From contig CAIOFV010000159.1 of NCBI GenBank assembly GCA_903857665.1, forward strand, positions 1,894 to 65,893: a stretch of DNA of 64,000 bases, given 5' to 3'. Positions 2 through 61,798 of this stretch are shown here, in pieces. Position 1 is the stretch's first letter; every line of letters starts with the position of its first letter. Source of the DNA: an uncultured Myxococcales bacterium (GTDB lineage: Bacteria > Myxococcota_A > UBA9042 > DTJE01). Under the pieces are notes generated by a model, which saw only the letters and a program-made list of their open reading frames with translations, had not been told where the DNA came from and did no database searches. The position numbers and the translations under genes were made by a program.

Positions 2-181
2 ACGGGCACCTTCCAGGGCTTCACGGGCGTGGCCGGCACCGACCGCATCGACTGGATCCTGCACGATCCGGCGTGGCTGAAGGGCTTGAACGCGGGCACG
101 GTGACGACCCACGAGGGCGATCGCTGGCCCTCGGACCACTTCCCGGTCGCCGCCACGCTGCGCCTGGGCGCGGTGAAGTAG
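2..181 (+). CDS. 3' end of an endonuclease/exonuclease/phosphatase (EEP)-family protein (partial; start lies upstream of the window)
   Basis: Frame 2 reads ...THEGDRWPSDHFPVAATLRLGAVK* and ends at TAG 179-181. SDHFPV is the C-terminal catalytic-His motif of EEP enzymes. The C-terminus resembles the complete EEP gene at 28035-29060 (TSDHFQVVVGLEF). Confidence 0.5.
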   Translation, partial: TGTFQGFTGVAGTDRIDWILHDPAWLKGLNAGTVTTHEGDRWPSDHFPVAATLRLGAVK

Positions 182-360: not shown

Positions 361-1953
361 ATGTCGAAGGGATCGGGAACGCTGGACGGATCGGCGGGCG
401 GCCTTGCCGTTCGGTGGCCTGGGCTGCTGGCTGCGGGCGTCCTGGTGCTGTGCGCCGCGGGCTGCTCCTCGTCCTCGACGGGCAGGGACGTGCCTGCGGA
501 CGCGCCGGACGTGGCGGACGCGGTGCCGGAGGCCGCCCCAGACGCCCCGGATGCCTCCGACGCCCCGGATGCCTCCGACGTCGCCGACGTCCCTGAAGCC
601 CCTGACACTCCTGACGTCCCGGACACTCCTGACGTCCCCCTGCCCTTCCACTGGGCCTCCGGTTGCGAGGGTTCCCGCACGTGGGACGCCTGGACCACCG
701 CACCGGACGCCCTTGCGGCCGACGCCCCTGCGACCACCGCACCGGACGCCCCTGCGACCGACGCCCCCGTTCCCGACGATGCCATTGCGACCGACGCACC
801 GGACGACACCCTTGCAGCCGACTCCCCCACGCCCACTGCGCCCTTCCTGCGCGGGCCTTTGGTGCAGATGGCCGACCGGGACGGGGCCACGCTGGTCTGG
901 CGGACGAACACTCCGCAGACCGACCCGGGCTGCGTCGATCTGTCCTGGGGCGGCTCCCCGTCCACCCAGCGCACCGTTTGCGGCACGGCCGACGCGAACG
1001 GCCAGTACCAGGTCCCGGTATCCGGCCTGCCCGTCGCGACGGAAATCACCTACACGGTCCGGGTCGGCGACACCCGGACGCAGCCGACGACCTTCCGAAC
1101 CCTGCCCGACCGGCCCGTCCCGATGAAGTTCGCGGTGTTCGCCGACGCCCACAGCAACGAGGAGAACCTGCGGAAGATGTCGGCTGTCGCGCTGGCGGAA
1201 GGCGTCGACTTCGCCATCGGTGTCGGCGACCTGTCCAACAGCGGCCTGGTCAGCGAGTTCGACACGACCTTCCGCGGGTTCCGGGACCTGGGCGCCCGGG
1301 TCAACATCTGGGCAGTCATCGGGAACCACGACGAAAAGAGCATCCAGGGCTACATGGACGCCTTCGTGCTGCCCGAGGGCAACACCGAGGACGACCCGTC
1401 GGCGGGCCTGGGCGAGGCGTGGTGGTCCCGGCGCATGGGCGACGTGTGGATCGGCGGCGGCTACATCCGGGACTTCTACCTTTCCGCTCCCGACAGCGAC
1501 TGGGGCGAGGTCGGCTGGTTCCTGGGCCAGTTCCAGACGGAGGAATTCAAGACCGCGAAGTGGAAGCTGTTCTTCATCCACGAACCGCCCTGGGTCGCCA
1601 GCGGGGGCGACGACTGCACGTACTACGGCGAACAGAGCCTGCGGTTCGCGCTGATGCCGATGCTGGCCGCCGCCGGCGTCCAGGCGTCGTTCCACGGCCA
1701 CATGCACGGCATCGAGTGGGGCGACGTGGACGGCGTGCGCAGTTACGTGGTCGGCGGGCTGTGCGGCTGCGGCATGGACTCCGACAAGTGCCCGGTCCCG
1801 GAGGGCCTCCCGCAGCCGTGGAACCGGAAATACGGCATCGCGAACCTCGCGATCGTGGAAACCGGTTGCGACCAGCTGACGGTCCGCTACCTGGACCTCG
1901 ACGGCAAGGACATCCCCACGGAAGTGATCCCGGTGACACCGGCCGGACCGTGA
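361..1953 (+). CDS. secreted purple-acid-phosphatase-like metallophosphoesterase (calcineurin-like), lipoprotein
   Basis: ATG at 361 lies 8 nt after GAAGGGGG. N-terminus MSKGSGTLDGSAGGLAVRWPGLLAAGVLVLCAAGCSSS is a signal peptide with lipobox LCAAGC. An acidic APDAPDASD linker follows, then a FN3-like PAP N-domain (GATLVWRT...YTVRVGD). Metallophosphoesterase motifs are present: GDLSNSG, GNHD, HGHMHG. The larger 73..1953 ORF start is a GC-driven upstream extension. Confidence 0.8.
   Translation: MSKGSGTLDGSAGGLAVRWPGLLAAGVLVLCAAGCSSSSTGRDVPADAPDVADAVPEAAPDAPDASDAPDASDVADVPEAPDTPDVPDTPDVPLPFHWASGCEGSRTWDAWTTAPDALAADAPATTAPDAPATDAPVPDDAIATDAPDDTLAADSPTPTAPFLRGPLVQMADRDGATLVWRTNTPQTDPGCVDLSWGGSPSTQRTVCGTADANGQYQVPVSGLPVATEITYTVRVGDTRTQPTTFRTLPDRPVPMKFAVFADAHSNEENLRKMSAVALAEGVDFAIGVGDLSNSGLVSEFDTTFRGFRDLGARVNIWAVIGNHDEKSIQGYMDAFVLPEGNTEDDPSAGLGEAWWSRRMGDVWIGGGYIRDFYLSAPDSDWGEVGWFLGQFQTEEFKTAKWKLFFIHEPPWVASGGDDCTYYGEQSLRFALMPMLAAAGVQASFHGHMHGIEWGDVDGVRSYVVGGLCGCGMDSDKCPVPEGLPQPWNRKYGIANLAIVETGCDQLTVRYLDLDGKDIPTEVIPVTPAGP
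535..790 (+). repeat. in-frame tandem DNA repeats encoding the acidic (A/V)PD(A/T)(P/S)D linker of the phosphatase
   Basis: Perfect 18-bp tandem duplication gacgccccggatgcctcc at 541-558 and 559-576. gacactcctgacgtcc repeats twice around 603-640. accgcaccggacgcccctgcgacc-like units repeat around 690-770. Confidence 0.5.
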
Positions 1954-8825: not shown

Positions 8826-9293
8826 ATGCCGGCCCCGGACCCGAACTCGGGCCTCTACGTGCTGCTCCTCGAGGTGGTCGCGCCGACCTCCGTTCGGGTC
8901 GGCGCGCTGGGGACGCTGGACTTCCCGGCCGGCACCTGCCTGTACGTGGGCAGCGCCCGGAGGAACCTGCGGCAGCGGGTGGAACGCCACCTGGCGGCCA
9001 CCAAGAAGGTTCGATGGCACGTGGACTACCTGACGACGCATCCGGGCGTCCGGGTCGTCGGGGCCGTGCTGGTGACCGGGTCGAAGGCGACCGAGTGCGG
9101 GCTGAACCGGAAGGTGGGAAGGGGCGTGGCGGGCGCCGTGCCCCTGCCGCGGTTCGGGGCATCCGACTGCCGGGCGAAGTGCCCGGCGCACCTGTGGTGG
9201 CGGGAGGAGGCGGTGTCGCTGGAGGAGGTCGCGGCGATGGTGGGCGGCACGACCCTTGGGCCGCCCATTGGCCCGGACCGGCCCCCGTGGTAG
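8826..9293 (+). CDS. GIY-YIG nuclease-family protein (DUF123-type), standalone
   Basis: 155 aa. N-terminal SGLYVLLLEV...LYVGSARRNLRQRVERHL matches the GIY-YIG/DUF123 pattern (G-hYhh ... YVGSA ... R..RH). Confidence 0.65.
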   Translation: MPAPDPNSGLYVLLLEVVAPTSVRVGALGTLDFPAGTCLYVGSARRNLRQRVERHLAATKKVRWHVDYLTTHPGVRVVGAVLVTGSKATECGLNRKVGRGVAGAVPLPRFGASDCRAKCPAHLWWREEAVSLEEVAAMVGGTTLGPPIGPDRPPW

Positions 9294-9328
9294 GTTTCCC
9301 CGGGATCGATGGCCCGGGGAGGGGAACC

Positions 9329-10696
9329 GTGGGGCTGCGGCAGGTGGTCGAGTTCTTCCGGACCGGCCCGGACCGCGCCCTGCGCAGCGACGACCCGGCC
9401 GTCATCGACCGCGAGTACAAACGTCGCCGCCGCAGCGTGTTCTGGTCGGTCACGCTGGGGTACGCGTTCTTCTACGTGGCCCGCATCAACTTTTCGGTCG
9501 TCAAGAAGCCACTGCTGGACGAGGGGATCCTGTCCGCGACCCAGATGGGCGTGATCGGGTCCACGATGCTGACGGTGTACGCGTTCGGGAAGCTGTCCAA
9601 CGGGTTCCTGTCGGACCGGGCGAACATCCGGCGCTTCATGTCCATCGCGTTGCTGTGCGCCGCTGTCATCAACCTGGCGCTGGGGTTCGTCACCTGGTTC
9701 TGGGCCTTCGCGATCCTGTGGGGACTGAACGGCTGGTTCCAGTCGGTCGGATCGGCGCCCAGCGTGGTGTCGCTGTCCCAATGGTTTTCGCCGCGCGAGC
9801 TGGGGACCCGGTACGGCCTGTGGTCGGTCAGCCACAGCATCGGGGAAGGCGCGACCTTCGCCATCACGGCAGCGCTCGTGTCCTGGCTGGGATGGCGATG
9901 GGGCTTCTGGGGCCCCGGCCTGCTGTGCGCCGGTGCGGCGCTGGCCCTGTACAAGACGCTGGCCGATCGACCCGCGACCTATGGCCTGCCGTCGGTGATG
10001 GACTACCGCGACGACCATCCGGCGCCCAGGCCCGAGGGCGAAACGCCCCGCGAGGCGGTGTCGGTGGGGCGCCTGCAGGTGGAGGTCCTGAAGAACCCGG
10101 CGATCTGGGTGCTGGGGCTGGCAGGGGCCACGATGTCCGCCGCCCGGTACGGGGTCAACAACTGGGGGATGCTGTACCTCCAGGAGGGAAAGGGCTACTC
10201 GATGACCGAGGCCGGGTCGATCCTGGCCGTGTACCCGATCGCCGCGCTGGCCGGCGCCGCGCTGTCCGGGTTCGTGTCGGACCGGCTGTTCGGGTCCCGC
10301 CGTAACATCCCCGCGCTGCTGATGGGCGTGATGGTCACGGCGACGCTGACGGCGCTGGCGCTGACGCCCGCGGGCGAGCCCTGGCTGGACTCGGCCATCC
10401 TGGCGGTGTTCGGCTTCAACATGGGCGGGCTGCTGACCTACCTGGGCGGGCTGATGGCGGTGGACCTGTCACCCAAGCGGGCCGCCGGGGCCGCGATGGG
10501 GATCATCGGCGTGTTCGCCTACCTGGGGGCGGCGATCCAGGACACCGTATCGGGGCTGCTGGTGGACCAGGGGCGGACCGTGACGGACGGCGTTTCTACC
10601 TATGATTTCGACCACATGCTGGCGTTCTGGATCGGCTGTTCGCTGGTGTCCATCCTGCTGACCCTGGGGGTCTGGAACGCCCGTCCCCGGGAATAG
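9329..10696 (+). CDS. MFS organophosphate:Pi antiporter (GlpT/UhpT/PgtP family) transporter
   Basis: YKRRRRSVFWSVTLGYAFFYVARINFSV is the OPA-family N-terminus (cf. GlpT ...GYAAYYLVRKNF). About 12 TM helices; length ~455 aa from GTG 9329, which is in frame and 4 nt after GGGGAGGGGAACC. No ATG exists in frame between the GIY-YIG stop and the conserved core, so the exact start is uncertain. Confidence 0.75.
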   Translation: MGLRQVVEFFRTGPDRALRSDDPAVIDREYKRRRRSVFWSVTLGYAFFYVARINFSVVKKPLLDEGILSATQMGVIGSTMLTVYAFGKLSNGFLSDRANIRRFMSIALLCAAVINLALGFVTWFWAFAILWGLNGWFQSVGSAPSVVSLSQWFSPRELGTRYGLWSVSHSIGEGATFAITAALVSWLGWRWGFWGPGLLCAGAALALYKTLADRPATYGLPSVMDYRDDHPAPRPEGETPREAVSVGRLQVEVLKNPAIWVLGLAGATMSAARYGVNNWGMLYLQEGKGYSMTEAGSILAVYPIAALAGAALSGFVSDRLFGSRRNIPALLMGVMVTATLTALALTPAGEPWLDSAILAVFGFNMGGLLTYLGGLMAVDLSPKRAAGAAMGIIGVFAYLGAAIQDTVSGLLVDQGRTVTDGVSTYDFDHMLAFWIGCSLVSILLTLGVWNARPRE

Positions 10697-10738
10697 GCTT
10701 TCGACTTCAAGACAGCCCATCTTCAGACCGACTTCTCC

Positions 10739-10767
10739 TTGACAGGAAAGGCCCGGCGGTGTACGTA
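10739..10767 (+). promoter_or_regulatory. putative sigma-70-type promoter for the LacI/iol genes (TTGACA - 17 bp - TACGTA)
   Basis: TTGACA at 10739-10744 and TACGTA at 10762-10767 with 17-bp spacing, about 70 bp upstream of the LacI ATG. Sequence inspection only. Confidence 0.3.
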
Positions 10768-10794
10768 AGCGTTTGCGCAGCGTAATCGTTTGCG
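10765..10794 (+). promoter_or_regulatory. two tandem LacI-family-operator-like half-palindromic sites (GTAAGCGTTTGCG / GTAATCGTTTGCG)
   Basis: Near-identical 13-mers at 10765-10777 and 10782-10794. Each resembles a LacI-type operator half (TGTAAGCG..). They overlap the putative -10 element. Confidence 0.3.
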
Positions 10795-10838
10795 GTGCGC
10801 GACGCCCCCGTTGTCGGTGGACGCCGGAGAGGAACGAC

Positions 10839-11909
10839 ATGGCAGCAACGCTGGTCGAAATCGCGCGCCTGGCCCGGGTTTCCGTGGCGACCGTGTCGAG
10901 GGCGCTGAACGGCCAACCCGGCGTCGGCCCCAAGATGCGCAAGCGGATCCAGGCCCTTGCGGCCCAGGTGGACTACACGCCCCACGCGAACGCCCGGGCG
11001 CTGGTCACCGGCCGCATCCCCTTCCTGGGCCTGGTGGTTCCAGACATCACGAACCCCTTCTTCCCGTCCCTGGCCCGGGGCGCCGAAGAGGCGGCCTTCG
11101 CCCGCGGATACAGCCTGCTGCTGCTGAACACCAACTGGAGCCCGACCCGGCTGCGCCAGGCGTTCGACCTGCTGACGTCGCGGCGCGTGGCGGGACTGAT
11201 GATATCGGTGCCCCTCGAAGGGCTGGGCGACGACCACCGCGAATGGGCCGGCCTGGCCCGCACGGTGGTGATGGCCGGGGTCCCCGCTCCGGCCGGCTCC
11301 GGGATCGGAACCGTGGACGTGGACGACCTGGAGGGCGGGCGACTGGTCGGGCGGCACCTGCTGGAGCGATCCTGGCGGCGGATCGGGTTCGTCGCCGGCT
11401 CGGCGGTGGATCGCTCGGCACGGGATCGACTGGCCGGCCTGCAGCAGGCCCTGGCCGAGGCGGGGCGGCCCGGGGCCCTGGGCGCGACCTCCGCCGGCGA
11501 GTGGTCCGAGGCCAGCGGGTACGAGCAGGCGCGTCGATTGCTGGCCCGTCGCAGCCGCCCGGACGCCATCTTCGCCGCCAACGACCTGCTGGCGCTGGGC
11601 GTGGCCCGCGCCTCGGCCGAGGCGGGACTGGCCCTGGGGACCGACCTGGGCCTGGTCGGGTATGACGACATCGACAGCGTGCGCTGGACCGCGGTGCCCA
11701 TCACCTCGGTCAGCCAGCCGGAGTTCGACGTGGGGCGCGAGGCCGCACGACGCCTGGTGGCGCTGGCCGAAGGCGCCGGCGCCGAACCGGATGTCCGCCT
11801 GGAGCCCCACCTGGTCATACGGGCCAGCAGCGGCGCTGCACGCGAGACTCGCGCTGCCACGGCGAACGGCGCCCTGGCCTCCCGGACTTCCACGGAGACG
11901 ATCGGATGA
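10839..11909 (+). CDS. LacI-family transcriptional regulator (likely iol operon repressor)
   Basis: ATG 10839 lies after GGAGAGGAA. N-terminal HTH MAATLVEIARLARVSVATVSRALNG is a LacI signature, followed by a periplasmic-binding-fold sugar-binding domain. The stop overlaps the next start (ATGA at 11906-11909). Confidence 0.85.
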   Translation: MAATLVEIARLARVSVATVSRALNGQPGVGPKMRKRIQALAAQVDYTPHANARALVTGRIPFLGLVVPDITNPFFPSLARGAEEAAFARGYSLLLLNTNWSPTRLRQAFDLLTSRRVAGLMISVPLEGLGDDHREWAGLARTVVMAGVPAPAGSGIGTVDVDDLEGGRLVGRHLLERSWRRIGFVAGSAVDRSARDRLAGLQQALAEAGRPGALGATSAGEWSEASGYEQARRLLARRSRPDAIFAANDLLALGVARASAEAGLALGTDLGLVGYDDIDSVRWTAVPITSVSQPEFDVGREAARRLVALAEGAGAEPDVRLEPHLVIRASSGAARETRAATANGALASRTSTETIG

Positions 11910-13387
11910 GCACACCCATCCTGAAGAACTACGTGAACAGCGCGTTCGTGGACGCGGGCTGCCGTGGGCTGCTGGACGTCGAGAACCCGTCGACCGGCGC
12001 CGTGATCGCGCAGGTCCCGCTGTCTACCGCCGAGGAAGTAGATCGGGTCGTCCGAACTGCAGCCGCAGCGTTCCCCGGCTGGGCAGCCACTCCCGTGGCC
12101 CGCCGGGTCAAGCCCCTGTTCGAGCTTGCGGAACGCATGCGCCGCGACGAGGAGGGGCTGTGCCGCGTGCTGGTCGAGGAGATGGGCAAGTCCCTGCCCG
12201 ACGCCCGCGCGGAAATGAAGCGGGCCATCGAGAACCTCGAGGTCGCCTGCGGAATGCCGATGCTGCAGCAGGGCGAGCGGCTGGTGGGGTGCTCCTTCGA
12301 GATGGATGGCGAGGTGCTGCGCATGCCCGTGGGCGTGTTCGGCATGATCGCCCCGTACAACTTCCCGGCGATGGTGCCGTTCTGGTTCCTGCCGTATGCC
12401 ATTGCCACCGGCAACACCTTCGTGGTGAAGGCCAGCGAGCAGGTCCCGAACACGATGCAGCGGATCTTCGAGCACCTGGACGCCGTGGGCCTGCCGCCCG
12501 GCGTGGTGTCACTGGTCCACGGGGACCGGGTCGCGGCCGAGGCGCTGGTCGAGCACCCCGACGTGGCGGGGATCTCGTTCGTGGGCTCCACGAAGGTCGC
12601 CCGGCAGGTGGCCGCCCGCTGCGCGGCGACGGGCAAGCGCTTCCAGGCCCTGGGCAGCGCCAAGAACCACCTGGTCGTGATGCCCGACGCCCGCATGGAC
12701 GAGGTGGTGCGCAACATGATCTCGTCGTGCTTCGGGTGCGCCGGGCAGCGGTGCATGGCGTCGTCGGCCATCGTGGCCGTAGGCGACGCGACCTATCGCG
12801 AAACGATCGACCGCTTCGTCGCCGCGTCCCGCGACGTCGTGGTCGCCGACCCGCTGGACCCGCGGTTCGCCGACGAGCAGATGCTGATGGGCCCGGTCAT
12901 CTCGGCGAGGCACAAGGACTACGTGCTGAACATGATCGACGTGGGCGTCCGCGAGGGCGCGACGCTGGCGCTGGACGGCCGAGGCCTGACGATCCCGGGG
13001 AGGGAGGGAGGCCACTTCATCGGCCCGACGGTGCTGACGGACGTGCGCCCCGGCATGGCGGTGCACCAGACGGAAATCTTCGGCCCGGTGGTGGTGATCC
13101 TGAAGGCCGATTCGTTCGAGGAGGCGGTCGGGATCCTCAACGACCATCCCTACGGGAACGGCGCGTCGCTGTATACCCAGAGCGGGTACTGGGCCCGCCG
13201 CTTCAAGATGGAGGCGCGCGCCGGGATGCTGGGCATCAACGTCGGGATCCCTGCGCCGGTCGCGTACCTGCCCTTCGGGGGCACCAAGGCGTCGGCGTTC
13301 ACGGACATCAAGGCGCAGGGCCGCGAGGTGGTGTCCTTCTTCACCGAGTCCCGGATCGTCACCGAACGCTTCTGGCCGGAGGCATGA
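11906..13387 (+). CDS. iolA: CoA-acylating methylmalonate-semialdehyde / malonate-semialdehyde dehydrogenase
   Basis: 493-aa aldehyde dehydrogenase with FVGSTKVARQV and catalytic CMASS-type motifs (GQRCMA). It has the MmsA/IolA length and is the first gene of an iol operon. Confidence 0.85.
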   Translation: MSTPILKNYVNSAFVDAGCRGLLDVENPSTGAVIAQVPLSTAEEVDRVVRTAAAAFPGWAATPVARRVKPLFELAERMRRDEEGLCRVLVEEMGKSLPDARAEMKRAIENLEVACGMPMLQQGERLVGCSFEMDGEVLRMPVGVFGMIAPYNFPAMVPFWFLPYAIATGNTFVVKASEQVPNTMQRIFEHLDAVGLPPGVVSLVHGDRVAAEALVEHPDVAGISFVGSTKVARQVAARCAATGKRFQALGSAKNHLVVMPDARMDEVVRNMISSCFGCAGQRCMASSAIVAVGDATYRETIDRFVAASRDVVVADPLDPRFADEQMLMGPVISARHKDYVLNMIDVGVREGATLALDGRGLTIPGREGGHFIGPTVLTDVRPGMAVHQTEIFGPVVVILKADSFEEAVGILNDHPYGNGASLYTQSGYWARRFKMEARAGMLGINVGIPAPVAYLPFGGTKASAFTDIKAQGREVVSFFTESRIVTERFWPEA

Positions 13388-14484
13388 CCATGGGCGAAAC
13401 GAACGGCGGGTACCTGGGCCCGCTGCACCAGACCGTCGCGACGACGGCCACCGACTTCTGGAACGACAGCTGCGCGTCGGACGAACTGGCCGACGCGATG
13501 GTGCACGGTGCGGTGGGCGCCACCACGAACCCGACCATCGTGCTGGAGGTGCTGCGGAAGGAACTGCCGCGGTGGCGGGACCGGATCCTCGCGATGGGCC
13601 GGGAGATGCCGACCGGGTCGGAGGTCGATGTCGCGTGGCGCCTCATCGAGGAGATGGCCGTCGCCGGCGCGCGGCAGTTGATGCCCGTGTTCGAACGCGA
13701 AGGCGGCCGGAAGGGGCGCCTGTCGATCCAGACCAACCCCGAGTGGTACCGGAACGCGCCGGCGCTGGTGGCGCAGGCCGAGCACTTCGCGGGCCTCGCC
13801 CCGAACATGCAGGTGAAGATCCCCGCGACCCGGGCCGGCATCGAGGCGATCGAGGAGGCCACGTTCCGGGGCGTCAACATCAACGCGACGGTCAGCTTCA
13901 CGGTGCCCCAGGCGCTGGCGGTGGGCGAGGCGGTCGAGCGGGGGCTGCGGCGGCGGGAGGCGGAGGGCCGCGAGGTCGCGTCGATGGCGCCGGTCTGCAC
14001 GCTGATGGTGGGCCGGCTGGACGACTGGCTGAAGGTCGTCGCGAAACGGGACGGGATCGTCTGCACGCCCGGCGACCTGGACTGGGCCGGGATCGCGTGC
14101 ATGAAGCGAGCGTATGGGATCTACCGGGAGCGGGGCCTGCGGACGCGCCTGCTGGCTGCGGCGTACCGCCACCATATGCACTGGTCGGAACTGATCGGCG
14201 GCGACGTGATCCTGACGATCCCGCACGCCTGGCAGCGCCTGTTCCACGCGTCGGACATCGAGTGCCGGCCGCGCTTCGACGACCCGGTGGACCCCGCGAT
14301 CCTGGAAGGGCTGTTGCGCCGCTTCCCCGATTTCCGGCGCGCCTACGCGCCCGACGGGCTGTCGGCGGACGAATTCGACGGGTTCGGCGCGACGGCGCGG
14401 ACGCTGCGGGCGTTCCTGGAATCGTACCACCAGTTGCTGGCGCTGGTCCGGGACGTGCTGCTGCCGAACCCGGACCTGGGGTGA
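13384..14484 (+). CDS. transaldolase-family protein (transaldolase / fructose-6-phosphate-aldolase superfamily)
   Basis: ATG overlaps the iolA stop (gcATGAccATG). TATDFWNDSCASDEL...GATTNPTIV and the Schiff-base Lys region QVKIPAT are present. 367 aa. Confidence 0.8.
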   Translation: MTMGETNGGYLGPLHQTVATTATDFWNDSCASDELADAMVHGAVGATTNPTIVLEVLRKELPRWRDRILAMGREMPTGSEVDVAWRLIEEMAVAGARQLMPVFEREGGRKGRLSIQTNPEWYRNAPALVAQAEHFAGLAPNMQVKIPATRAGIEAIEEATFRGVNINATVSFTVPQALAVGEAVERGLRRREAEGREVASMAPVCTLMVGRLDDWLKVVAKRDGIVCTPGDLDWAGIACMKRAYGIYRERGLRTRLLAAAYRHHMHWSELIGGDVILTIPHAWQRLFHASDIECRPRFDDPVDPAILEGLLRRFPDFRRAYAPDGLSADEFDGFGATARTLRAFLESYHQLLALVRDVLLPNPDLG

Positions 14485-14569: not shown

Positions 14570-15403
14570 ATGGACGAGCACCCGCGACGCATCCGGCACC
14601 CGGAAGGATTCGCGCCCGGCGTGACCCCGATCACGCGCATCGGCGCGGCCCGAGACGACACCGGCATGGACTTCGACATGGTGGTGATGCGGCCGGGCGA
14701 GGTCATCGAGGAAACCTGCGCCCTGGAAACCGCGTGGCTGCTGCTGTCCGGGGAAGCGGCGCTGGCCTGGACGGCTTCCGGGCTTCCAGGAAGTGCGGCG
14801 ACGGTGCGGCGGGACTCGATCTTCGACGAGGATCCGATCGCGCTGCACCTGCCCGTGGGGACGCATGCCCGCGTCGAGGCCCGGTCGGACGTCGAGTGGG
14901 CCCGGTTCCGCACGGCAAACGACGCGGCCTTCCCGGCCACGCTGTTCACCCACGACAACCTGCTGGAGTCCGAGGACCGGGACAAGGGGCTGTGGGGGGA
15001 CGCGGCCTGGCGGATCGTCCGGACGATCTTCGACACGCGCAACCGGCCGACGGCCCGCCTGGTGCTGGGCGAGGTGATCAACTTCCCGGGGCGCTGGTCG
15101 TCCTATCCCCCCCACCACCACCCGCACCCGGAAATCTACCACTACCGGTTCACGGCCCCACAGGGCTATGGCCACGGCGAGCTGGGCGACGAGGTGCTGA
15201 AGGTCCGTGCCCACGACACGGTGCTGATCCTGGACGGCGACGACCACAGCCAGGTCGCCGCTCCCGGATACGGCATGTACTACATCTGGGCCATCCGGCA
15301 CCTCGACGGAAACCCCTACGTCGCCCCGGAATTCACGGCCGAGCACCGGTGGATGAAGGTCCCCGGCGCGACGATGCCCCGCATCGGCAGGAGGAACGGA
15401 TGA
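14570..15403 (+). CDS. iolB: 5-deoxy-glucuronate isomerase
   Basis: 277 aa, KduI/IolB cupin family. RBS AAAGGAG. Preceded by an 85-bp gap; the stop overlaps the iolD start. Confidence 0.8.
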   Translation: MDEHPRRIRHPEGFAPGVTPITRIGAARDDTGMDFDMVVMRPGEVIEETCALETAWLLLSGEAALAWTASGLPGSAATVRRDSIFDEDPIALHLPVGTHARVEARSDVEWARFRTANDAAFPATLFTHDNLLESEDRDKGLWGDAAWRIVRTIFDTRNRPTARLVLGEVINFPGRWSSYPPHHHPHPEIYHYRFTAPQGYGHGELGDEVLKVRAHDTVLILDGDDHSQVAAPGYGMYYIWAIRHLDGNPYVAPEFTAEHRWMKVPGATMPRIGRRNG

Positions 15404-17271
15404 CGACCCGCTTGACCATGGCACAGGCCCTGGTGCGGTTCCTGACGCAGCAGTACGTGGAACGGGACGGGGTCCAGCGCCGCTTCTTCGGCGGCTGCTT
15501 CGGCATCTTCGGCCACGGCAACGTCGCCGGGATCGGGCAGGCGCTGCAGGAGCACCCGGACTTCCCGTTCATCCCCGTCCGCAACGAGCAGGCGCAGGTG
15601 AACGCCGCGGCCGGGTACGCGAGGATGAACAACCGGCTGGGCGCGATGGCCTGCACGTCGTCGATCGGCCCGGGCGCCACGAACATGGTGACCGGGGCCG
15701 CGATGGCGACGATCAACCGCCTGCCGGTGCTGCTGCTGCCCGGCGACATCTTCGCACGGCGTAACGTGGCGCCGGTGCTGCAGCAGTTGGAATCCGAGTC
15801 CGGGCAGGACGTGTCGGTCAACGACTGCTTCCGCCCGGTGTCCCGGTACTGGGATCGGATCGGGCGCCCCGAACAATTGCTGACGGCCCTTCCGGAGGCG
15901 ATGCGGGTGCTGACGTCGCCGGCCCAGACCGGCGCAGTGACGCTGTGCCTGCCCCAGGACGTCCAGGCGGAGGCGCACGACTTCCCGACGGCCTGCTTCC
16001 AGAAGAGGGTCTGGCACATCGCGCGGGCCCGTCCCGACACGGCGGCGCTGGACAAGGCCGCGGCGTGGATCCGCAAGGCCCGGCGGCCGATGATCGTGGC
16101 CGGCGGGGGGGTCATCTATAGCGACGCGACGGATGCGTTGGCCCGGTTGTGCGCCGCGACCGGGATTCCCGTGGGCGAGTCCCAGGCGGGAAAAGGCGCC
16201 CTGTCGTTCGACCACCCGTCGAACCTCGGTGGCGTGGGAGCGACCGGGACCCTGGCGGCCAACCGGGTGGCCCTGGACGCGGACCTCGTCATCGGGATCG
16301 GGACGCGCTACTCCGATTTCACGACCGCGTCCAAGACCCAGTTCCAGGGCCCGGGCGTCCGGTTCATCAACCTGAACGTGGCGGAATTCGACGCATTCAA
16401 GCACGACGGGCTGGCGCTGGTGGGCGACGCCCGGGCGGCGCTGGAAGAACTGGCGACGCGGCTGGCGGGCTGGAAGGTCGATGACGCGTACGCGGCGCTC
16501 TGTGCGGACCTGCGCCGCGAATGGGACACCGAGGCCGCGCGGCTGGTGGCGCCGACCGGAGACGGGCGGATCGGGCAGGCCGAGGTCATCGGGATCATCA
16601 ACGACACGATCCGGCCCGACGGCGTCGTGATCAACGCCGCCGGCAGCGCGCCCGGAGACCTGCACAAGTTGTGGCGGGCACGCCATCCCAAGCAGTACCA
16701 CGTGGAATACGGCTACTCGACGATGGGCTACGAGATCCCTGCGGGGCTCGGCGTCAAACTGGCGGCGCCCGAGAGGGAGGTCGTCGCGCTGGTCGGCGAC
16801 GGGACCTTCCTGATGATGCCGTCCGAGCTGGTCACGGCGGCGCAGGAAGGCCTGCGGATGACCGTCGTGCTGGTGGACAACCACGGCTACGCCAGCATCG
16901 GCAGCCTGTCGGAGTCGCTGGGCAGCGGCGGGTTCGGCTGCCGGTACAGATACCGCGCGGGGGACGGGACCCTGTCGGGCGACGACCTGCGGCTGGACTT
17001 CGTGTCGATCGCGCGCGGGATGGGCGTTCACGCGGTGCGGGCCGAGGACGGCGAGGCGCTGCGGCGCGAGATGGTTGCGGCGCGCGATCGGGAAGGCACC
17101 ACGGTCATCGTGGTGGAGTGCGATCGGGACAAGCACGTCGGCGGCTACGACTCCTGGTGGGACGTCGCGGTCGCCGAGGTATCGACGATGGACGAGGTCC
17201 GGCGCGTCCGGGCCGGGTACGAGCAGGCGGTGCGCAAGGAACGAAACTTCTTCGGGGAGAAGCGAACATGA
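15400..17271 (+). CDS. iolD: 3D-(3,5/4)-trihydroxycyclohexane-1,2-dione hydrolase (TPP-dependent)
   Basis: ATG 15400 lies after GGAGGAACGG. 623 aa with an acetolactate-synthase-like TPP fold (GDGTFLM, GxxGxG). ATGA overlaps on both sides. Confidence 0.85.
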   Translation: MTTRLTMAQALVRFLTQQYVERDGVQRRFFGGCFGIFGHGNVAGIGQALQEHPDFPFIPVRNEQAQVNAAAGYARMNNRLGAMACTSSIGPGATNMVTGAAMATINRLPVLLLPGDIFARRNVAPVLQQLESESGQDVSVNDCFRPVSRYWDRIGRPEQLLTALPEAMRVLTSPAQTGAVTLCLPQDVQAEAHDFPTACFQKRVWHIARARPDTAALDKAAAWIRKARRPMIVAGGGVIYSDATDALARLCAATGIPVGESQAGKGALSFDHPSNLGGVGATGTLAANRVALDADLVIGIGTRYSDFTTASKTQFQGPGVRFINLNVAEFDAFKHDGLALVGDARAALEELATRLAGWKVDDAYAALCADLRREWDTEAARLVAPTGDGRIGQAEVIGIINDTIRPDGVVINAAGSAPGDLHKLWRARHPKQYHVEYGYSTMGYEIPAGLGVKLAAPEREVVALVGDGTFLMMPSELVTAAQEGLRMTVVLVDNHGYASIGSLSESLGSGGFGCRYRYRAGDGTLSGDDLRLDFVSIARGMGVHAVRAEDGEALRREMVAARDREGTTVIVVECDRDKHVGGYDSWWDVAVAEVSTMDEVRRVRAGYEQAVRKERNFFGEKRT

Positions 17272-18170
17272 GCCGGATCCGTGTCGCGAACGCGCCGTGT
17301 TCCTGGGGTGTGCTGGAATTCGATCTGGATGGGCAGGCAAGCGGCGGCGAGCGGGTGCTGTCCGAGATGGCCGCCACGGGATTCGTCGGGACCGAGCTGG
17401 GCGACTGGGGCTTCCTGCCCACCGAGCCTCCGGCGCTGAAGACGATGCTGGACCGCCACGGCCTGGGCATGGTCGGAGCGTTCGTGCCCGTCGCCCTGCG
17501 GGATCCGGCTGCCCACGAGCCGGGCGCGGAAGCCGCCGTGAAGGTGGCTCGCCTGCTGGCCGCCGTGGCCGAGGCGCCGTTCGTCGTGCTGGCCGACGAC
17601 AACGGCAAGGTCCCGGAACGGACCGCCAACGCCGGGCGGATCAAGCCGGCCCAGGGCCTGAGCGACGCCGAATGGACGGTGTTCGCGGCCGGCGCGAACC
17701 GGGTCGCGGCCGCAGTGCGCAAGGAAACCGGCCTGCGGACCGTGTTCCACCACCACTGCGCCGGGTTCGTCGAAACACCCGCCGAGGTGGCGACGTTGCT
17801 GGACCGGACCGACCCGGACCTGGTGGGACTGTGCCTGGACATGGGCCACTACGCATTCGGCGGCGGCAACCCGATGGAGGCGCTGGAACGCTACGGCGAC
17901 CGCATCCGGCACATCCACTTCAAGGACTGCGAGCCTACCGTGGCCGCGCGTTCGCGGGCCGAGAACTGGGACTACTTCACGTCGGTCGGAAAGGGCGTGT
18001 TCTGCGAACTGGGCCTGGGTTCGGTGCCGTTCCCGGCGATCCTGAAGACGCTGCAGCAGCGCGGGTTCGACGGCTGGGTCGTGGTCGAGCAGGACGTGCT
18101 GCCGGGCATGGGCACGCCGCTGGAAAGCGCCCGGCGGAACCGGGAGTACCTGGCGCGGATCGGCCTGTAG
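17268..18170 (+). CDS. iolE: inosose dehydratase (xylose-isomerase-like TIM barrel)
   Basis: ATG 17268 overlaps the iolD stop. 300-aa sugar-phosphate isomerase/epimerase fold, at the IolE position of the operon. Confidence 0.75.
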   Translation: MSRIRVANAPCSWGVLEFDLDGQASGGERVLSEMAATGFVGTELGDWGFLPTEPPALKTMLDRHGLGMVGAFVPVALRDPAAHEPGAEAAVKVARLLAAVAEAPFVVLADDNGKVPERTANAGRIKPAQGLSDAEWTVFAAGANRVAAAVRKETGLRTVFHHHCAGFVETPAEVATLLDRTDPDLVGLCLDMGHYAFGGGNPMEALERYGDRIRHIHFKDCEPTVAARSRAENWDYFTSVGKGVFCELGLGSVPFPAILKTLQQRGFDGWVVVEQDVLPGMGTPLESARRNREYLARIGL

Positions 18171-18245
18171 GACGCGGGCGACGGGCGCCGATCGACGGGG
18201 ATGAAGGATCGTCGCGGCACGGTGCCGCGACTGAAGGAGCAGCGA

Positions 18246-19277
18246 ATGAACATGGCGAACAAGTTCCGGGTCGGCGTAATCGGTGCGGGACGGATCGGCG
18301 TGGTGCATGCCCGGACGATGGCCCGGATCCCGGGCTTCGAGGTGCGGGCGGTGGCGGACCCCGTGGTTGCGGCGGCGGGTCGGCTTGCCGCGGAGCTGGG
18401 CATCCCGACGGCGACGTCGGACTACCGGGAGATCCTGGCGGACCCGGCGATCGACGCGGTGCTGGTCTGCAGCAGCACCGACACGCACGCGGACATCGTC
18501 ATCGCGGCCAGCGCGGCGGGCAAGCACATCTTCTGCGAAAAGCCGGTCGATCTGTCGCTGGAAAAGGTCGATCGGGCCCTGGCCGCCGTGAAGGCAGCCG
18601 GCGTCACCTTCCAGGTGGGGTTCAACCGCCGCTTCGACCCCGACTTCAAGCGGATCCACGACCTGCTGGCCGACGGTGCGCTGGGCACCCCGCACCTGCT
18701 GCGCATCGCCAGCCGGGACCCGAACCCGCCGTCGCCCGAGTACGCGGCCGTGTCCGGGGGCATGTTCCTGGACATGACGATCCACGACTTCGACATGGCC
18801 CGCTACCTGATGGGCTGCGAGGTCGAGGAGATCTACGTCGCGGCGGCCGTGCTGGTGGACCCGGCGATCGGCGCGGCGGGCGACGTCGATACGGCCCTGA
18901 TCACGCTGCGGTTCGAAAACGGGGCGCTGGGCACCATCGACAACTGCCGACGGGCGGTGTTCGGGTACGACCAGCGGGTCGAAGTGCTGGGTTCGAAGGG
19001 CATGGCGGCCAACCGCAACCACGGTCCGGACACCGTGGTCGTGTCCGGCGCGACCCACATCGAGGAATCCCTTCCGCTGAACTTCTTCATGGAGCGCTAC
19101 GTCCCGTCGTTCAAGGCCGAGATCCAGGCCTTCGCGGACGCCGTGTCGTCCAGCACGACGCCTCCGGTGGGCGGCGAGGACGGGCGGCAGGCGCTGCTAC
19201 TGGGTCTGGCGGCGAAGCGGTCCTGGAAGGAGCATCGCCCGGTGCGACTGGCCGAGGTGGACCCGCGGCGCGCGTGA
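18246..19277 (+). CDS. iolG: myo-inositol 2-dehydrogenase (Gfo/Idh/MocA family)
   Basis: ATG 18246 lies 6 nt after AAGGAG. Rossmann motif VGVIGAGRIG plus EKP motif (FCEKP). An earlier in-frame ATG at 18201 has no RBS. Confidence 0.85.
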   Translation: MNMANKFRVGVIGAGRIGVVHARTMARIPGFEVRAVADPVVAAAGRLAAELGIPTATSDYREILADPAIDAVLVCSSTDTHADIVIAASAAGKHIFCEKPVDLSLEKVDRALAAVKAAGVTFQVGFNRRFDPDFKRIHDLLADGALGTPHLLRIASRDPNPPSPEYAAVSGGMFLDMTIHDFDMARYLMGCEVEEIYVAAAVLVDPAIGAAGDVDTALITLRFENGALGTIDNCRRAVFGYDQRVEVLGSKGMAANRNHGPDTVVVSGATHIEESLPLNFFMERYVPSFKAEIQAFADAVSSSTTPPVGGEDGRQALLLGLAAKRSWKEHRPVRLAEVDPRRA

Positions 19278-19338: not shown

Positions 19339-20178
19339 ATGAAGATCACGTTCATCGGTCACCTGTGCCGGGACATCAACATCATCGACGGCGCTTCCCA
19401 CGCCATGTTCGGGGGGGGCGTCTTCCACAACGGCATGACCGCGAAAGGCCTCGGGGCGAGGCCCACGATCCTGACTCGCTGCGCCGATGCCGATGCCGTG
19501 CCCATGACCCGGGACCTGGTCGCGGCCGGGGTGGAGGTCCGCGTGCGGCCCTCCGTGGCCACGACGTCCATCGAGAACCTGTACCCCGACAGCCACCCGG
19601 ACCACCGCGTCTCAACGCTGCTGGCCCGGGGCGGGCCCTTCGAAACCACCGACGTGGACGCGATCCAGGCGGACGCGGTGCACGTGAACCCGCTGTGGTA
19701 CGGCGAGTTCCCGGTCGATCTGCTGCCGGCGCTGCGGGCCCGCGTGTCGCTGTTGGGTGCCGACGCGCAAGGGTTCCTGCGAACCGCCGACACCAACGGA
19801 CGGCTGGTCCTGAGGGACTGGGCGGACAAGGGTCGGTGGATGCCCCTCTTCGACGTGTTCAAGGCGGACATCACGGAAGCCGAGATCCTCACCGGCACCC
19901 GCGAGATCCAGCCGGCGGCCCGCGCCCTGTACGCGCTGGGGGCCCGGGAGATCGTGCTGACCCACGGGGAGGGTGTCTGCGTGTTCGACGGGGGCACGTT
20001 CTTCGACGAGCCCTTCGGGACCTATTCCCTGTCCGGTCGCACGGGCCGCGGGGACACCTGCTCGGCCGCGTATCTGGTCGGACGCTCGAGGATGGGGGTC
20101 GGGGATGCGGCAACGTTCGCCGCCAAGATCACGTCGCTGAAACTGCAGTACCCGGGACCGTTCCGCGGATTCGGCTGA
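19339..20178 (+). CDS. PfkB-family carbohydrate kinase (candidate 5-dehydro-2-deoxygluconokinase)
   Basis: 279-aa ribokinase-like fold with the C-terminal GAGD-type motif (GRGDTCSAAYL). It is shorter than typical IolC, so the symbol is withheld. Confidence 0.7.
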   Translation: MKITFIGHLCRDINIIDGASHAMFGGGVFHNGMTAKGLGARPTILTRCADADAVPMTRDLVAAGVEVRVRPSVATTSIENLYPDSHPDHRVSTLLARGGPFETTDVDAIQADAVHVNPLWYGEFPVDLLPALRARVSLLGADAQGFLRTADTNGRLVLRDWADKGRWMPLFDVFKADITEAEILTGTREIQPAARALYALGAREIVLTHGEGVCVFDGGTFFDEPFGTYSLSGRTGRGDTCSAAYLVGRSRMGVGDAATFAAKITSLKLQYPGPFRGFG

Positions 20179-25700: not shown

Positions 25701-26539
25701 ACGTCCAGCAGATCGGTGCCGGGCGCCAGGGCGTTCATCTGGACCGCGCGCGCCAGGCACAGCCCGGACGGCGGGTCGCAGATCGCCGCGCCCGCGCACT
25801 GGCCCGCGGCGTCGCACCGGGGCAGGCAGCCGCCGTAGAAGGCGTCACAGGCAGAACCGTCCGGGCAGGGATGCCGGTCGCACCAGCCGGTGCAGGCGGG
25901 GTCCAGGGCGCAGTCGTCGTCGTCGCAATCGACGGCCCCGTCGCCGTCGTCGTCGGCCTGGTCGGTGCAGTTCGTTTCGGAAACGGCCTTGAAGGTGGTC
26001 GTCATGCGGATGTACGACGCGTCCTTCGGCAGTTCGTAGTCGGTCCGCAGCACGACGTGCGTGACGACGCCCAGCATGTTGGCCTGGTCCATCAGGTTCA
26101 GCAGGGACAGCACCCGGTCGCCGCGCCCGGTCACGCGCACGACCGCCGTGGACCCGTCCGGCGCGGTGAACGCCTCGACCTGCCCCTGTTCGGGATGGGG
26201 GACCTGCAGGTTCGCGAACGGCAGCAGCAGGTAGAACTGGTCCAGGCCGTGACCGGCCCGGTACTGCTCCCAGGGCCGCACCAGGTCCGCATCGACCAGC
26301 GCGCCGCCCCAGAGGGCCGGGCTGGCAGCGTGGCCCGCGTCCAGGATCACGGCGCGAATATGCGAATTCTGCAGCACCCAGTCGCCGACGTCGCCGTACT
26401 GCTTGATGCCGCCGGGCAGTTCGGACCGGGACTCGATGCGCCGAGCCGTCGAGGGCGGATTGACGTCGGCGCACCCGGAAGCCAGGAACCCGGCGATCGC
26501 CAGCAGTAGCACCCTCGGAACCCAGGCAGACGCACGCAT
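22709..26539 (-). CDS. giant (1277 aa) PHP-domain lipoprotein with Cys-rich and MopE-like inserts
   Basis: ATG at 26539 (MRASAWVPRVLLLAIAGFLASGCAD; lipobox) overlaps the upstream porin stop (cTGATGc). PHP motifs VDQHVHTAGSSD, AITDHDF, GGSDVHG. Cys-rich modules CTDQADDDGDGAVDCDDDDC and CAADADCKDGKKC. The 1740-aa track ORF extends upstream through the porin gene in another frame and is an artefact. Confidence 0.75.
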   Translation of the reverse strand: MRASAWVPRVLLLAIAGFLASGCADVNPPSTARRIESRSELPGGIKQYGDVGDWVLQNSHIRAVILDAGHAASPALWGGALVDADLVRPWEQYRAGHGLDQFYLLLPFANLQVPHPEQGQVEAFTAPDGSTAVVRVTGRGDRVLSLLNLMDQANMLGVVTHVVLRTDYELPKDASYIRMTTTFKAVSETNCTDQADDDGDGAVDCDDDDCALDPACTGWCDRHPCPDGSACDAFYGGCLPRCDAAGQCAGAAICDPPSGLCLARAVQMNALAPGTDLLDVLSGGLLNALAGEDVPLDRKPGYVAGDMALFGSSLMSFAPGIGFEIDAQYRLGFLRGRNALKSPLSFDFLCGTGDGVSYGYFSKEGAVLFPFATESLTGSVTHGLNCLQDSSDDATCDDVPFVQFTRYLSVGEGDIASASRAIHELRGTKTGELSGLVMDGKTAHPVTRADVYAIADPCDPANCIQVPAVCGSFPTYEDLVAAARECTREPGNPDGRSLMATQFRTDAAAESRPEGRFNGSLIPGAYWLVARIGKGPLSAPARVVVSEGRTTRVALSLPEAGRLTYRALDEAGRPVGVRVTVGHCFPECHTSADCPEGQPCDAEFQCRPPTCASDGECDADETCTDGHCACASRLMAGEPREELGDGYMSDRKAAMAMSADGTGEIILPPGRYDVVFSHGFESEIDSREVVLSPGRTEYIGAYVPRVVDTRGWASVDQHVHTAGSSDAATKLGDRLTTAVADGLDVMAITDHDFITNPVPLARQMHLENRVLTLPGEEVTTLDISHLIGWPLKWAADQSAGGALNWTGKTPREIFAWMRSRGLFGADDTLVTIPHPRGGMSSYYDVYSQSPFDLTLNPGSIQKSTPLLVPANFAQEYDLVEVLNSKRLDITRMPTYDEVERYNVLERKVLASVQELPREKLLARMAPPSREILREMLTRTPAEQEALHSFVPTASCSMPSSCAADADCKDGKKCSPGLNLCKKPCATVGDCDAGYDCLDAYCSLPPGMPCDSVKGMTEDWLRMLDYGIFKPGVGGSDVHGIANYEIGCLRNYVRVPTDDPAAIDAHDLIHAYRRGNSFATWGPFVDVSVDGKGPGETAVLDGRTSVPLRVRVQKPSWFDVSRVEVLRNGVLEYVWDVDAADPKFRIAVPSHGVVALDATVDVSPGQDSWFVVFAMGVKGKAMNPVYGSSELPPVYLGDLFSSMLGSLPLALPAYIVSPRVPVYYPQFPFAVTNPVFLDVDGVDAKGCRITPIAGPAPAWACNYPPGYPAERMPCICR

Positions 26540-27864: not shown

Positions 27865-28034
27865 GATGCCTCCCCGCCCTTGCGGCCGCTTTGCCGCCGC
27901 GATGATAGCCGATCGAAATGGGCGATTCCACGATTTCCGAAAACGTTTGCTAAACGATTTCACCGCCTGGGATGGGCTTGATCGGGTGGCGGGCATCTGC
28001 CACCATCACCCGGTCTGGCGAAGGTGCCGAAGCG

Positions 28035-58937: not shown

Positions 58938-58947
58938 CGCCCCCCCA

Positions 58948-61781: not shown

Positions 61782-61798
61782 GAACGCCTCCTTGCCGG

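Follow-up and report, generated by a model that had tools for sequence, protein, structure and literature searches.

What does an organophosphate:phosphate antiporter do beside a set of genes for the breakdown of myo-inositol? This question is raised by a 64-kb window (the whole stretch of DNA that was analysed, 64,000 nucleotides of contig CAIOFV010000159.1 from an uncultured Myxococcales bacterium), in which a transporter gene of the organophosphate:phosphate antiporter (OPA) family lies immediately upstream of a LacI-type regulator and an inositol catabolic (iol) operon (Table 1). With a confidence slightly above even, we favour the reading that the protein is an inner-membrane antiporter of a distinct OPA subfamily, that its cargo would be a myo-inositol monophosphate, probably 1D-myo-inositol 1-phosphate (1D-Ins(1)P, hereafter Ins(1)P), and that a pyrophosphate (PPi)-dependent inositol kinase homologue, encoded by the last gene of the iol operon, would work with it in the reverse direction. 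All functional statements made here are based on comparative genomics and residue conservation, from which we infer what the transporter carries, which way the kinase reaction runs, how the genes are regulated and where in the environment the substrate comes from.

The window has a GC content of about 70%, and genes were therefore placed by a third-position GC frame plot, in which the transporter gene shows a single coding frame, on the plus strand. The gene starts with GTG (9329), preceded by GGAGG at 9318-9322, and its nearest database homologue (P0001, 93% identity) likewise encodes 455 aa. The protein matches the Pfam family MFS_1 (PF07690, E 1.3e-46), and its top NCBIfam matches are all OPA models, with E-values of 1e-48 to 1e-73 for GlpT, UhpC, PgtP and UhpT and 2e-80 for TIGR00881. 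Among solved structures Escherichia coli GlpT comes first (1pw4, E 1e-55) and the human glucose-6-phosphate exchanger SLC37A4 second (E 4e-30). Homology and key residues place the protein in the OPA family (TC 2.A.1.4), and the MFS_1, OPA-model and 1pw4 matches agree with a first-pass annotation of the sequence, in which an OPA-family antiporter gene was described as adjoining the LacI regulator of the iol genes. All scores fall below the curated cut-offs: 270.6 bits against 407.75 for TIGR00881, 246.5 against 632.55 and 226.6 against 748 for the GlpT models TIGR00712 and NF008433, 246.6 against 564 for UhpC, 182.3 against 750 for PgtP, and 164.9 against 497 for UhpT. On these scores the transporter is a divergent OPA branch that the curated TIGR00881 model misses. 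When aligned, it is 29.8% identical to E. coli GlpT, 26.9% to UhpT and 31.7% to UhpC, while these three proteins share 30-36% among themselves. Orthology with GlpT, UhpT, UhpC or PgtP was ruled out by the sub-cut-off scores together with the pocket residues described below. More than 1000 homologues are present in the database, where the source annotation is "UhpC-like".

The pocket was compared with those of E. coli GlpT, UhpT and UhpC, using the residue numbers of GlpT. The four residues that bind phosphate, R45, K80, H165 and R269, are retained by the window transporter and by 22-23 of the 23 inositol-linked homologues, and Y38, Y42, Y76 and Y393 are also kept in the window protein. Since the phosphate-binding residues of GlpT are retained, exchange of an organophosphate for phosphate (Pi) is a reasonable default mechanism. 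Other GlpT positions differ: K46, W138, N162, N166, D274, E299 and Y362 are replaced by I, S, S, S, N, P and G, respectively, and in relatives Y266 is often Ser. The exchange of bulky for small side chains (W138S, Y362G and often Y266S) may be read as a roomier pocket.

The first-pass annotation had left the place of the transporter among its characterised relatives to a phylogeny. In a neighbour-joining tree (without support values) of 92 relatives and the three E. coli proteins, all 92 relatives form one clade, far from GlpT, UhpT and UhpC; with 30% identity and 246 bits against a cut-off of 632, the window protein is no tight relative of GlpT. The tree sorts the gene contexts into four subclades, namely GDPD-linked, propeller-linked, kinase-adjacent and Myxococcota iol-linked, the last of which holds the window protein. 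S162 and S166, which flank H165, are common to all iol- or kinase-linked members, while the propeller-linked subclade has A162/N166 and the GDPD-linked subclade has S162, A138 and mostly N or G at 166. As the flanking residues differ between subclades, the cargo may differ between them as well. In the wider clade the commonest immediate neighbour is a glycerophosphodiesterase gene of the GDPD+DUF4996 type (23 loci, often 16-20 nt off), and glycerol-3-phosphate (G3P) is a plausible cargo of the GDPD-linked subclades. No GDPD gene accompanies the inositol-linked subclade, which favours inositol monophosphate over glycerophosphoinositol. The first-pass annotation had proposed that inositol phosphates or glycerophosphoinositol are taken up to feed the iol pathway: the inositol-phosphate part is the best reading, given the conserved iol link and the kinase presented below, and the glycerophosphoinositol part is disfavoured by the lack of GDPD.

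Two contexts of the sister subclades are recorded here in their own right. In Bacteroides, Phocaeicola and Flavobacteriia (L069-L087) the transporter gene follows 16-20 nt after a GDPD+DUF4996 gene inside SusC/SusD loci with PQQ-like beta-propeller proteins, an arrangement that amounts to a glpT-glpQ-like module set in polysaccharide-utilisation-type loci. In about 20 other loci (L027-L068, e.g. L066 11369-12217), from Verrucomicrobiota, Gammaproteobacteria, Ignavibacteria and others, the transporter of the propeller-linked sister subclade adjoins a protein of about 282 aa, often near TonB-dependent receptors, purple acid phosphatases and sigma-54 regulators. This protein gave no Pfam or NCBIfam match, and a PDB search returned WD40-like repeat matches only.

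Gene neighbourhoods were compared in a sample of 80 loci from species-representative genomes and several metagenome contigs, in which homologues of the window genes were placed by tblastn. In the window, the transporter gene is followed on the plus strand by eight genes, for LacI, IolA, a transaldolase/FSA-like (TAL-like) protein, IolB, IolD, IolE, IolG and the kinase. The order OPA-LacI-IolA-TAL-like-IolB-IolD is kept in Myxococcota at transporter identities of 93%, 74%, 64% and 56-59%, and it is kept with varying upstream genes (L001/L012, L004/L010/L011, L015, L017-L019 and L116): the gene upstream of the transporter is a DUF123 gene in the window, a holB-like gene in L001 and a divergent iolE-GFO pair in L004, L010 and L011. 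Insertions interrupt some iol-linked loci: L089 holds an additional TPR gene, and L017 and L018 carry 1 to 3.4 kb of extra DNA. Other arrangements were found as well, such as OPA-TAL-IolB (L025), IolE-IolG-OPA (L042) and, in L099, the order IolB-like, TAL, IolD, IolA, IolE, IolG, OPA, kinase, where 22 nt separate IolG from OPA and the OPA and kinase genes overlap by 4 nt. The association of the transporter with inositol genes was seen in more than 20 independent loci from at least two phyla and, being this recurrent, is not due to chance.

The kinase gene that closes the operon resembles a weak PfkB/IolC, and its best solved relatives are 1vk4 and 5ysp, both of Thermotoga maritima TM0415 (E 8e-77, 48% identity). 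According to the report on TM0415 (Nagata et al. 2018, PMC5931981), this enzyme is a PPi-dependent kinase that produces 1D-myo-inositol 1-phosphate and is inactive with ATP, and earlier work cited there likewise found no ATP-dependent activity. The same paper names five residues that mark PPi dependence (K171, F221, R229, R232 and M266) and four that shape the acceptor site (I76, N78, S89 and L116), and gives a Km for inositol of 12 mM, with the authors doubting the true role of the enzyme. In the window kinase K171, F221, R229 and R232 are identical (four of the five), and M266 is replaced by Leu, also large and hydrophobic; Acidobacteriota copies keep Met at this position. The acceptor residues I76, N78, S89 and L116 and the catalytic D234 are identical in the kinases of the window, L001, L004, L011, L015, L026, L052 and L089. 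By its signature residues the window kinase is of the TM0415 type. An identity as IolC was ruled out, the TM0415 structures being the best match and the TM0415 signature residues being present.

Three Acidobacteriota genomes (L026, L032 and L052) have the kinase homologue directly behind the transporter, and a 247-kb contig (P0030) has it in front, in the order Raffinose_syn-like, PfkB, OPA. The partnership was also found starting from the kinase, in a reciprocal search in which metagenome contigs were scanned with a kinase alignment and the co-occurrence of window genes was then counted. Among the loci with a kinase at least 47% identical to that of the window and with at least 300 nt of upstream DNA, 13 of 23 carry the transporter, which in 12 of these 13 is directly upstream of the kinase (5-77 nt between the matched segments); it was present in none of the 45 loci with more distant kinases. 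Three kinds of inositol module accompany the OPA-kinase pair: the iol operon, IolG without the rest of that operon, and, in L098 (7291-8169), myo-inositol oxygenase, whose gene adjoins the pair. Some loci hold further carriers, either a sugar permease of the PF06800 type between IolG and the transporter (L109, 7287-8645; L117, 6471-7784) or a periplasmic (ABC-type) sugar-binding protein upstream (L099). That the pair spans three free-inositol routes and coexists with separate candidate inositol carriers fits a second, phosphorylated inositol substrate. The first-pass annotation had pointed to inositol monophosphatase (IMPase) and glycerophosphodiesterase as enzymes to look for; neither an IMPase nor a GDPD gene was found among the scanned genes of the 64-kb window, and the TM0415-type kinase is a predicted functional equivalent encoded in the operon itself.

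In the mechanism that we propose, inositol monophosphate would be freed outside the cell from inositol lipids or from higher inositol phosphates. Phospholipase-C-type cleavage of phosphatidylinositol and of inositol-phospho-ceramides yields the isomer 1D-Ins(1)P. The compound could pass the outer membrane through the OprO/P-like porin encoded at 26539-27864, and periplasmic Ins(1)P would then be swapped for cytoplasmic Pi by the OPA protein, the antiport being suggested by its family and residues. In the cytoplasm, the TM0415-type enzyme would run in reverse (Ins(1)P + Pi -> inositol + PPi), a direction that a high Pi/PPi ratio and the consumption of inositol by IolG would favour, and the inositol would be degraded by IolG, IolE, IolD, IolB, the transaldolase/FSA-like enzyme and IolA. 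Free inositol or mannosyl-inositol would enter separately, through the SSF symporter of a second operon (EEP-SSF-GH38). The 12 mM Km for inositol and the doubted role of TM0415 are compatible with inositol being the product of the enzyme. A direct degradation of Ins(1)P without dephosphorylation was considered and rejected: carbon mapping would put the oxygen that is phosphorylated by IolC on inositol C2, which is oxidised by IolG, and a phosphate on C1 would be expected to block the chemistry of IolE or IolB.

Regulation was approached through the promoter regions. In every iol-linked locus (L001, L004, L011, L015, L017, L018, L019, L089 and L116) the LacI gene is preceded by TTGACA, a spacer of 17 nt and TACGTA, together with one or two palindromes of the consensus CG[TC]AA[ATG]CGTTT[AG]CG. 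A weight matrix of this predicted operator, built from 14 palindrome sites, scores above 11 bits at only three places in the 64 kb of the window, 10764, 10781 and 27938, and in the fetched loci (2.17 Mb) hits of more than 15 bits are almost confined to iol loci. For the site at 27938, in the divergent region between the porin gene and the EEP operon, the expectation from shuffled sequence is 0.02 sites of at least 19 bits per 64 kb. L091, whose EEP protein is only 74% identical, retains it in front of the EEP gene as CGAAAACGTTTGCG. On this evidence the EEP-SSF-GH38 operon, and perhaps the porin gene too, probably belongs to the iol LacI regulon, and the operator suggests one regulon that joins the use of mannosides with that of inositol. 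As to L091 itself, its kinase and SSF are 99% identical to those of the window, its IolB, IolD and IolE 93% and its EEP 74%, and the tblastn table holds no IolG match between IolE and the kinase (L091 regions 2961-4721 and 11887-14721); by these matches it is a mosaic or deletion variant of the window locus.

The transporter appears to have a promoter of its own, as L001, L004 and L011, despite other upstream genes, have the same promoter element equally far from the start codon. An operator in the divergent region between the OPA gene and iolE was found only in L004, L010 and L011. An expression link between the transporter and the iol genes, as the first-pass annotation had envisaged, is not supported in this window, where the transporter has its own conserved predicted promoter and the weight-matrix scan finds no operator for it. 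Nothing useful came from searching 8400-11000 with generic sigma-70 and terminator patterns. The DUF123 open reading frame upstream of the transporter (8826-9293) has its stop codon inside the -10 element; as relatives carry other genes in this place, it looks like a local insertion.

The operon behind the third operator widens the picture. One relative of its EEP lipoprotein, 4c1r, is deposited as a "mannosyl-6-phosphatase", and we take this protein to be Bacteroides BT3783 of the yeast-mannan locus. The first-pass annotation had counted three secreted phosphoesterase lipoproteins and a phosphate-porin-like protein in support of inositol-phosphate use. The genes are real, but the protein encoded at 361-1953 and the EEP fragment at the window edge have no demonstrated link with inositol, and the full-length EEP is closest to a mannose-6-phosphatase-type protein and stands in a mannoside-type operon. 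The OPA gene is indeed, as had been remarked, the sole transporter gene adjoining the regulator, though the SSF gene at 29077-30921 is also relevant, its product being on sequence a candidate carrier of free inositol or mannosyl-inositol. That the OPA protein serves instead of an inositol permease does not follow, given that the SSF operon of the window is preceded by the same LacI-type operator and that relatives hold a sugar permease or an ABC binding protein beside OPA; with such separate carriers, the OPA protein would be an additional route and not a replacement.

Glycosidase genes were also met near the transporter in other loci. A GH38 protein of 1190 aa, 33% identical to that of the window, is encoded 33 nt after a 66%-identical transporter homologue (L014 11387-14959 and L007 4628-8200), and in L026 (11362-17040) the OPA-kinase pair is followed by genes for a GH3 protein with a polysaccharide-deacetylase domain and a neutral ceramidase. 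The operator before the EEP operon, the GH38 of L014, the genes of L026 and the Raffinose_syn-like neighbour on P0030 point, each as a single observation, towards glycosylated inositol(-phosphate) head groups as a wider pool, which may be a rival to the proposed cargo or an extension of it. Only tentatively do we put forward the following broader scheme. The OPA protein and the kinase would form a two-gene cassette for the energy-conserving salvage of 1D-Ins(1)P, which would supply the missing physiological role of TM0415-type enzymes and feed an ATP-independent iol pathway in which the TAL/FSA-like enzyme replaces IolC and IolJ, and the LacI regulon would add EEP, SSF, GH38 and possibly the porin, so that (mannosyl-)inositol-phospho-lipid head groups from fungi, plants or prey could be consumed.

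Several points weigh against Ins(1)P as the cargo and against the reversed kinase. Only the forward reaction is reported for TM0415 (PMC5931981), and we estimate that the reverse reaction is uphill by ~5-15 kJ/mol under standard conditions. Two close homologues of the transporter (L009, 75% identity; L090, 71%) adjoin CorA, with no iol genes within reach. No LacI operator above 11 bits lies upstream of the transporter in the window, and likewise none in L001, L015, L017-L019 and L089. Sister subclades are paired with GDPD as in E. coli glpT-glpQ, and for part of the clade G3P is a plausible cargo. The assignment of the cargo itself is drawn from sequence and context. Finally, the analysis covered the 64-kb window, and an ordinary IMPase, IolC, IolJ or GlpT may sit elsewhere in the genome.

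These points leave room for other explanations. Were the transporter a functional GlpT, glycerophosphoinositol would be split outside the cell, G3P would enter through the transporter and inositol through another carrier. The retained phosphate-binding residues and the frequency of GDPD+DUF4996 as a neighbour in the wider clade, reminiscent of glpT-glpQ, would suit this explanation, but the GDPD-linked members form separate subclades with other pocket residues, and no GDPD gene stands beside any iol- or kinase-linked member or among the scanned window genes. It would also leave the translational coupling to an inositol kinase homologue unexplained, and the equivalog score (246 against a cut-off of 632) argues in the same direction; we consider it unlikely. 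Another explanation is a larger cargo, such as an inositol phosphodiester or a glycosylated inositol phosphate (glycerophosphoinositol, or mannosyl-inositol-phosphate from fungal or plant inositol-phospho-ceramides), which GH38 or other enzymes would trim in the cytoplasm before the kinase acts. The enlarged pocket (W138S, Y362G and Y266S) could accommodate it, and it would make sense of the cytoplasmic GH38 of the window, encoded in an operon with an iol-type operator, of the GH38 gene 33 nt behind the transporter homologue in L014/L007, and of the neighbours in L026 (OPA-kinase-GH3/deacetylase-ceramidase) and P0030 (Raffinose_syn-like, PfkB, OPA). These glycosidase neighbours are single cases that differ by locus, though, and the kinase acceptor residues match plain myo-inositol. 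To our knowledge, all characterised OPA cargoes are phosphomonoesters. We give the larger cargo a low probability.

An inherited synteny without functional meaning, in which the transporter would have nothing to do with inositol and would act as a UhpC-like sensor or carry sugar phosphates in general, would agree with the "UhpC-like" annotation of homologues, with the missing operator upstream of the window transporter and with the close homologues that have no iol neighbours. It is hard to reconcile with an association that recurs in varied gene orders and in at least two phyla and is found from the side of the kinase as well, nor are there UhpA/UhpB-type partners adjacent in the window, and the UhpC model gives 246.6 against 564 bits; we regard it as the least probable of the explanations considered. 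The kinase, for its part, could run forward and make Ins(1)P from inositol as an effector of LacI, in which case the partnership with the transporter would concern signalling or phosphate balance. Known iol regulators respond to phosphorylated intermediates, e.g. the phosphate of 2-deoxy-5-keto-gluconate (DKG), termed DKGP, in the case of Bacillus subtilis IolR. The operon has no IolC, and the forward reaction is the only one shown for TM0415 (PMC5931981). On the other hand, OPA-kinase pairs also occur without a nearby LacI or iol gene (L026, L052 and L093), and spending inositol on a phosphate ester in a catabolic operon would bring no obvious benefit; we consider a forward role very improbable. 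Import of an inositol monophosphate followed by the reversed kinase reaction is the reading that we retain.

Compared with known systems, E. coli GlpT (TC 2.A.1.4.3, 1pw4) belongs to the same MFS/OPA fold family and shares R45, K80, H165, R269, Y38, Y42, Y76 and Y393 with the window transporter, but the identity is 30%, and the partners in the window are an inositol kinase homologue and iol genes and not GlpQ. UhpT and UhpC of E. coli and PgtP of Salmonella are of the same family too, with the essential arginine pair in common and, in UhpT and UhpC, a small residue at 138; in contrast to them, the window protein scores far under the respective cut-offs and has no UhpAB partners in the window. 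TM0415 and the window kinase both lie in inositol catabolic clusters and share the acceptor, the catalytic and four PPi residues. The TM0415 operon (TM0411-TM0416) is reported in PMC5931981 to encode the Thermotoga route, whereas the window kinase sits with the classical IolG/E/D/B/A route, and an OPA partner, found here and in many relatives, receives no mention in the accessible parts of that paper. Classical iol clusters, with IolT/IolF porters of the MFS or IbpA-IatAP-type ABC systems, have in common with the window the regulator and IolG, IolE, IolD, IolB and IolA in one operon. They differ in that the window has no sugar-porter or ABC gene adjacent, carries a transaldolase/FSA-like gene with no IolC/IolJ found, and has its candidate inositol carrier, SSF, encoded apart, in an operon of its own behind the same operator.

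The literature searches brought up no bacterial carrier for inositol monophosphate, whether of the OPA family or of another, and we know of no bacterial inositol monophosphate transporter that has been characterised. Two things are new here in a transporter of a familiar family, namely the cargo predicted for it and its recurrent pairing with a PPi-dependent inositol kinase. Soils and sediments store organic phosphorus and carbon in large amounts as inositol phosphates and inositol lipids. If the proposed mechanism is true, the OPA family gains a new substrate class, and soil bacteria a new, predicted means of using inositol-lipid head groups as food. It would also explain why PPi-dependent inositol kinases occur in catabolic clusters, a question left open by the TM0415 paper. 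For annotation, the gene pair would be widespread and easily recognised in metagenome-assembled genomes of Myxococcota, Acidobacteriota and others.

The iol operon departs from the textbook pathway at another point. The classical set of the B. subtilis type (IolG, IolE, IolD, IolB and IolA) is fully represented, while neither IolC (the DKG kinase) nor IolJ (the class II DKGP aldolase) had a match among the scanned genes of the 64-kb window. The transaldolase/FSA-family gene is conserved in every iol-linked locus, and its product keeps the Schiff-base Lys and D17, N35, T156, R181 and R228 (TalB numbering), with Gln in place of E96, as in the aldolase FSA, and Met in place of F178. DKG mimics fructose-6-phosphate, with CH2-COO- replacing the phosphorylated end, so that a TAL/FSA-type cleavage without prior phosphorylation is conceivable. 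On the basis of these residues, the enzyme may split unphosphorylated DKG, or transfer its dihydroxyacetone unit, giving malonate semialdehyde for IolA. No relevant paper came up when the literature was searched for a transaldolase acting in inositol catabolism. An operon that lacks IolC and IolJ and carries a transaldolase-like gene points to a second, predicted variation of the textbook pathway.

Table 1. Features of the 64-kb window that are discussed in the text, in order of position.
Feature	Position	Strand	Evidence and remarks
EEP protein, C-terminus	2..181		41% identical to second EEP (28035-29060)
Metallophosphoesterase lipoprotein (purple-acid-phosphatase-like)	361..1953		Pfam and N-terminus
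Predicted promoter of transporter	9268..9296	+	TTGGCC, 17-nt spacer, TGgTAGGTT; -10 contains DUF123 stop codon
OPA-family MFS transporter	9329..10696	+	455 aa; predicted myo-inositol-phosphate:Pi antiporter
iol operon promoter	10739..10794	+	TTGACA 10739-10744, 17-nt spacer, TACGTA 10762-10767, two LacI-type operators
Predicted LacI-type operators of iol promoter	10764-10777 and 10781-10794	+	CGTAAGCGTTTGCG (10764-10777) and CGTAATCGTTTGCG (10781-10794)
LacI-family regulator	10840..11909	+	Pfam LacI HTH and Peripla_BP domains; start reset to ATG 10840 (not 10773), behind GGAGAGGAA
IolA, CoA-acylating methylmalonate/malonate-semialdehyde dehydrogenase	11906..13387	+	TIGR01722 491.9 bits, above cut-off of 448.5
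Transaldolase/FSA-family protein	13390..14484	+	PF00923 E 6.5e-38; sits where the aldolase of the IolC/IolJ step is expected
IolB-like protein, KduI/IolB family	14570..15403	+	PF04962 E 9e-48; TIGR04378 80 bits, below cut-off, yet best match
IolD, start approximate	15400..17271	+	TIGR04377 897 bits, above cut-off of 715
IolE-like protein, start approximate	17280..18170	+	TIGR04379 199.5 bits, below cut-off of 290, yet best match; Pfam AP_endonuc_2
IolG, inositol 2-dehydrogenase	18201..19277	+	TIGR04380 448.7 bits, above cut-off of 355
TM0415-type PPi-dependent myo-inositol 1-kinase homologue	19339..20178	+	279 aa; last gene of iol operon; activity predicted
OprO/OprP-type Porin_O_P outer-membrane porin	26539..27864	-	PF07396 E 3.4e-12; signal peptide; divergent from EEP operon
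Third predicted LacI-type operator	27938..27951	.	CGAAAACGTTTGCT, 19.1 bits; 170-nt divergent region between porin and EEP operon
EEP-family lipoprotein	28035..29060	+	PF03372; lipobox LSLAAC; best PDB 3g6s, 3mpr, 4c1r
SSF (SGLT-like) Na+/solute symporter	29077..30921	+	PF00474 E 4.7e-33; best PDB vSGLT, SGLT1/2; starts 16 nt after EEP gene
GH38 alpha-mannosidase, cytoplasmic	30964..33960	+	Pfam GH38 N, middle and C domains; without signal peptide

The other scanned genes of the window are unrelated and include aromatic amino-acid synthesis, a threonine dehydratase, a two-component hybrid protein, cytochromes and a molybdopterin oxidoreductase operon. Two minus-strand genes that lie between the iol operon and the porin gene (21046-22824 and 22709-26500) encode proteins of 592 aa and about 1260 aa with weak PHP-domain matches. 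At 1954-3521, long open reading frames with high third-position GC occur on both strands (1954-3036 on the plus strand and 2055-3521 on the minus strand), with a Pfam match for the minus-strand frame only, a weak WAP-type cysteine motif. The molybdopterin operon, on the minus strand at 57963-62180, is of the Psr/Phs type and comprises a molybdopterin oxidoreductase with a TAT signal, a 4Fe-4S subunit and an NrfD membrane subunit; it adjoins genes for a protein of a sulphur-transport family and for multihaem cytochromes (54400-56241).

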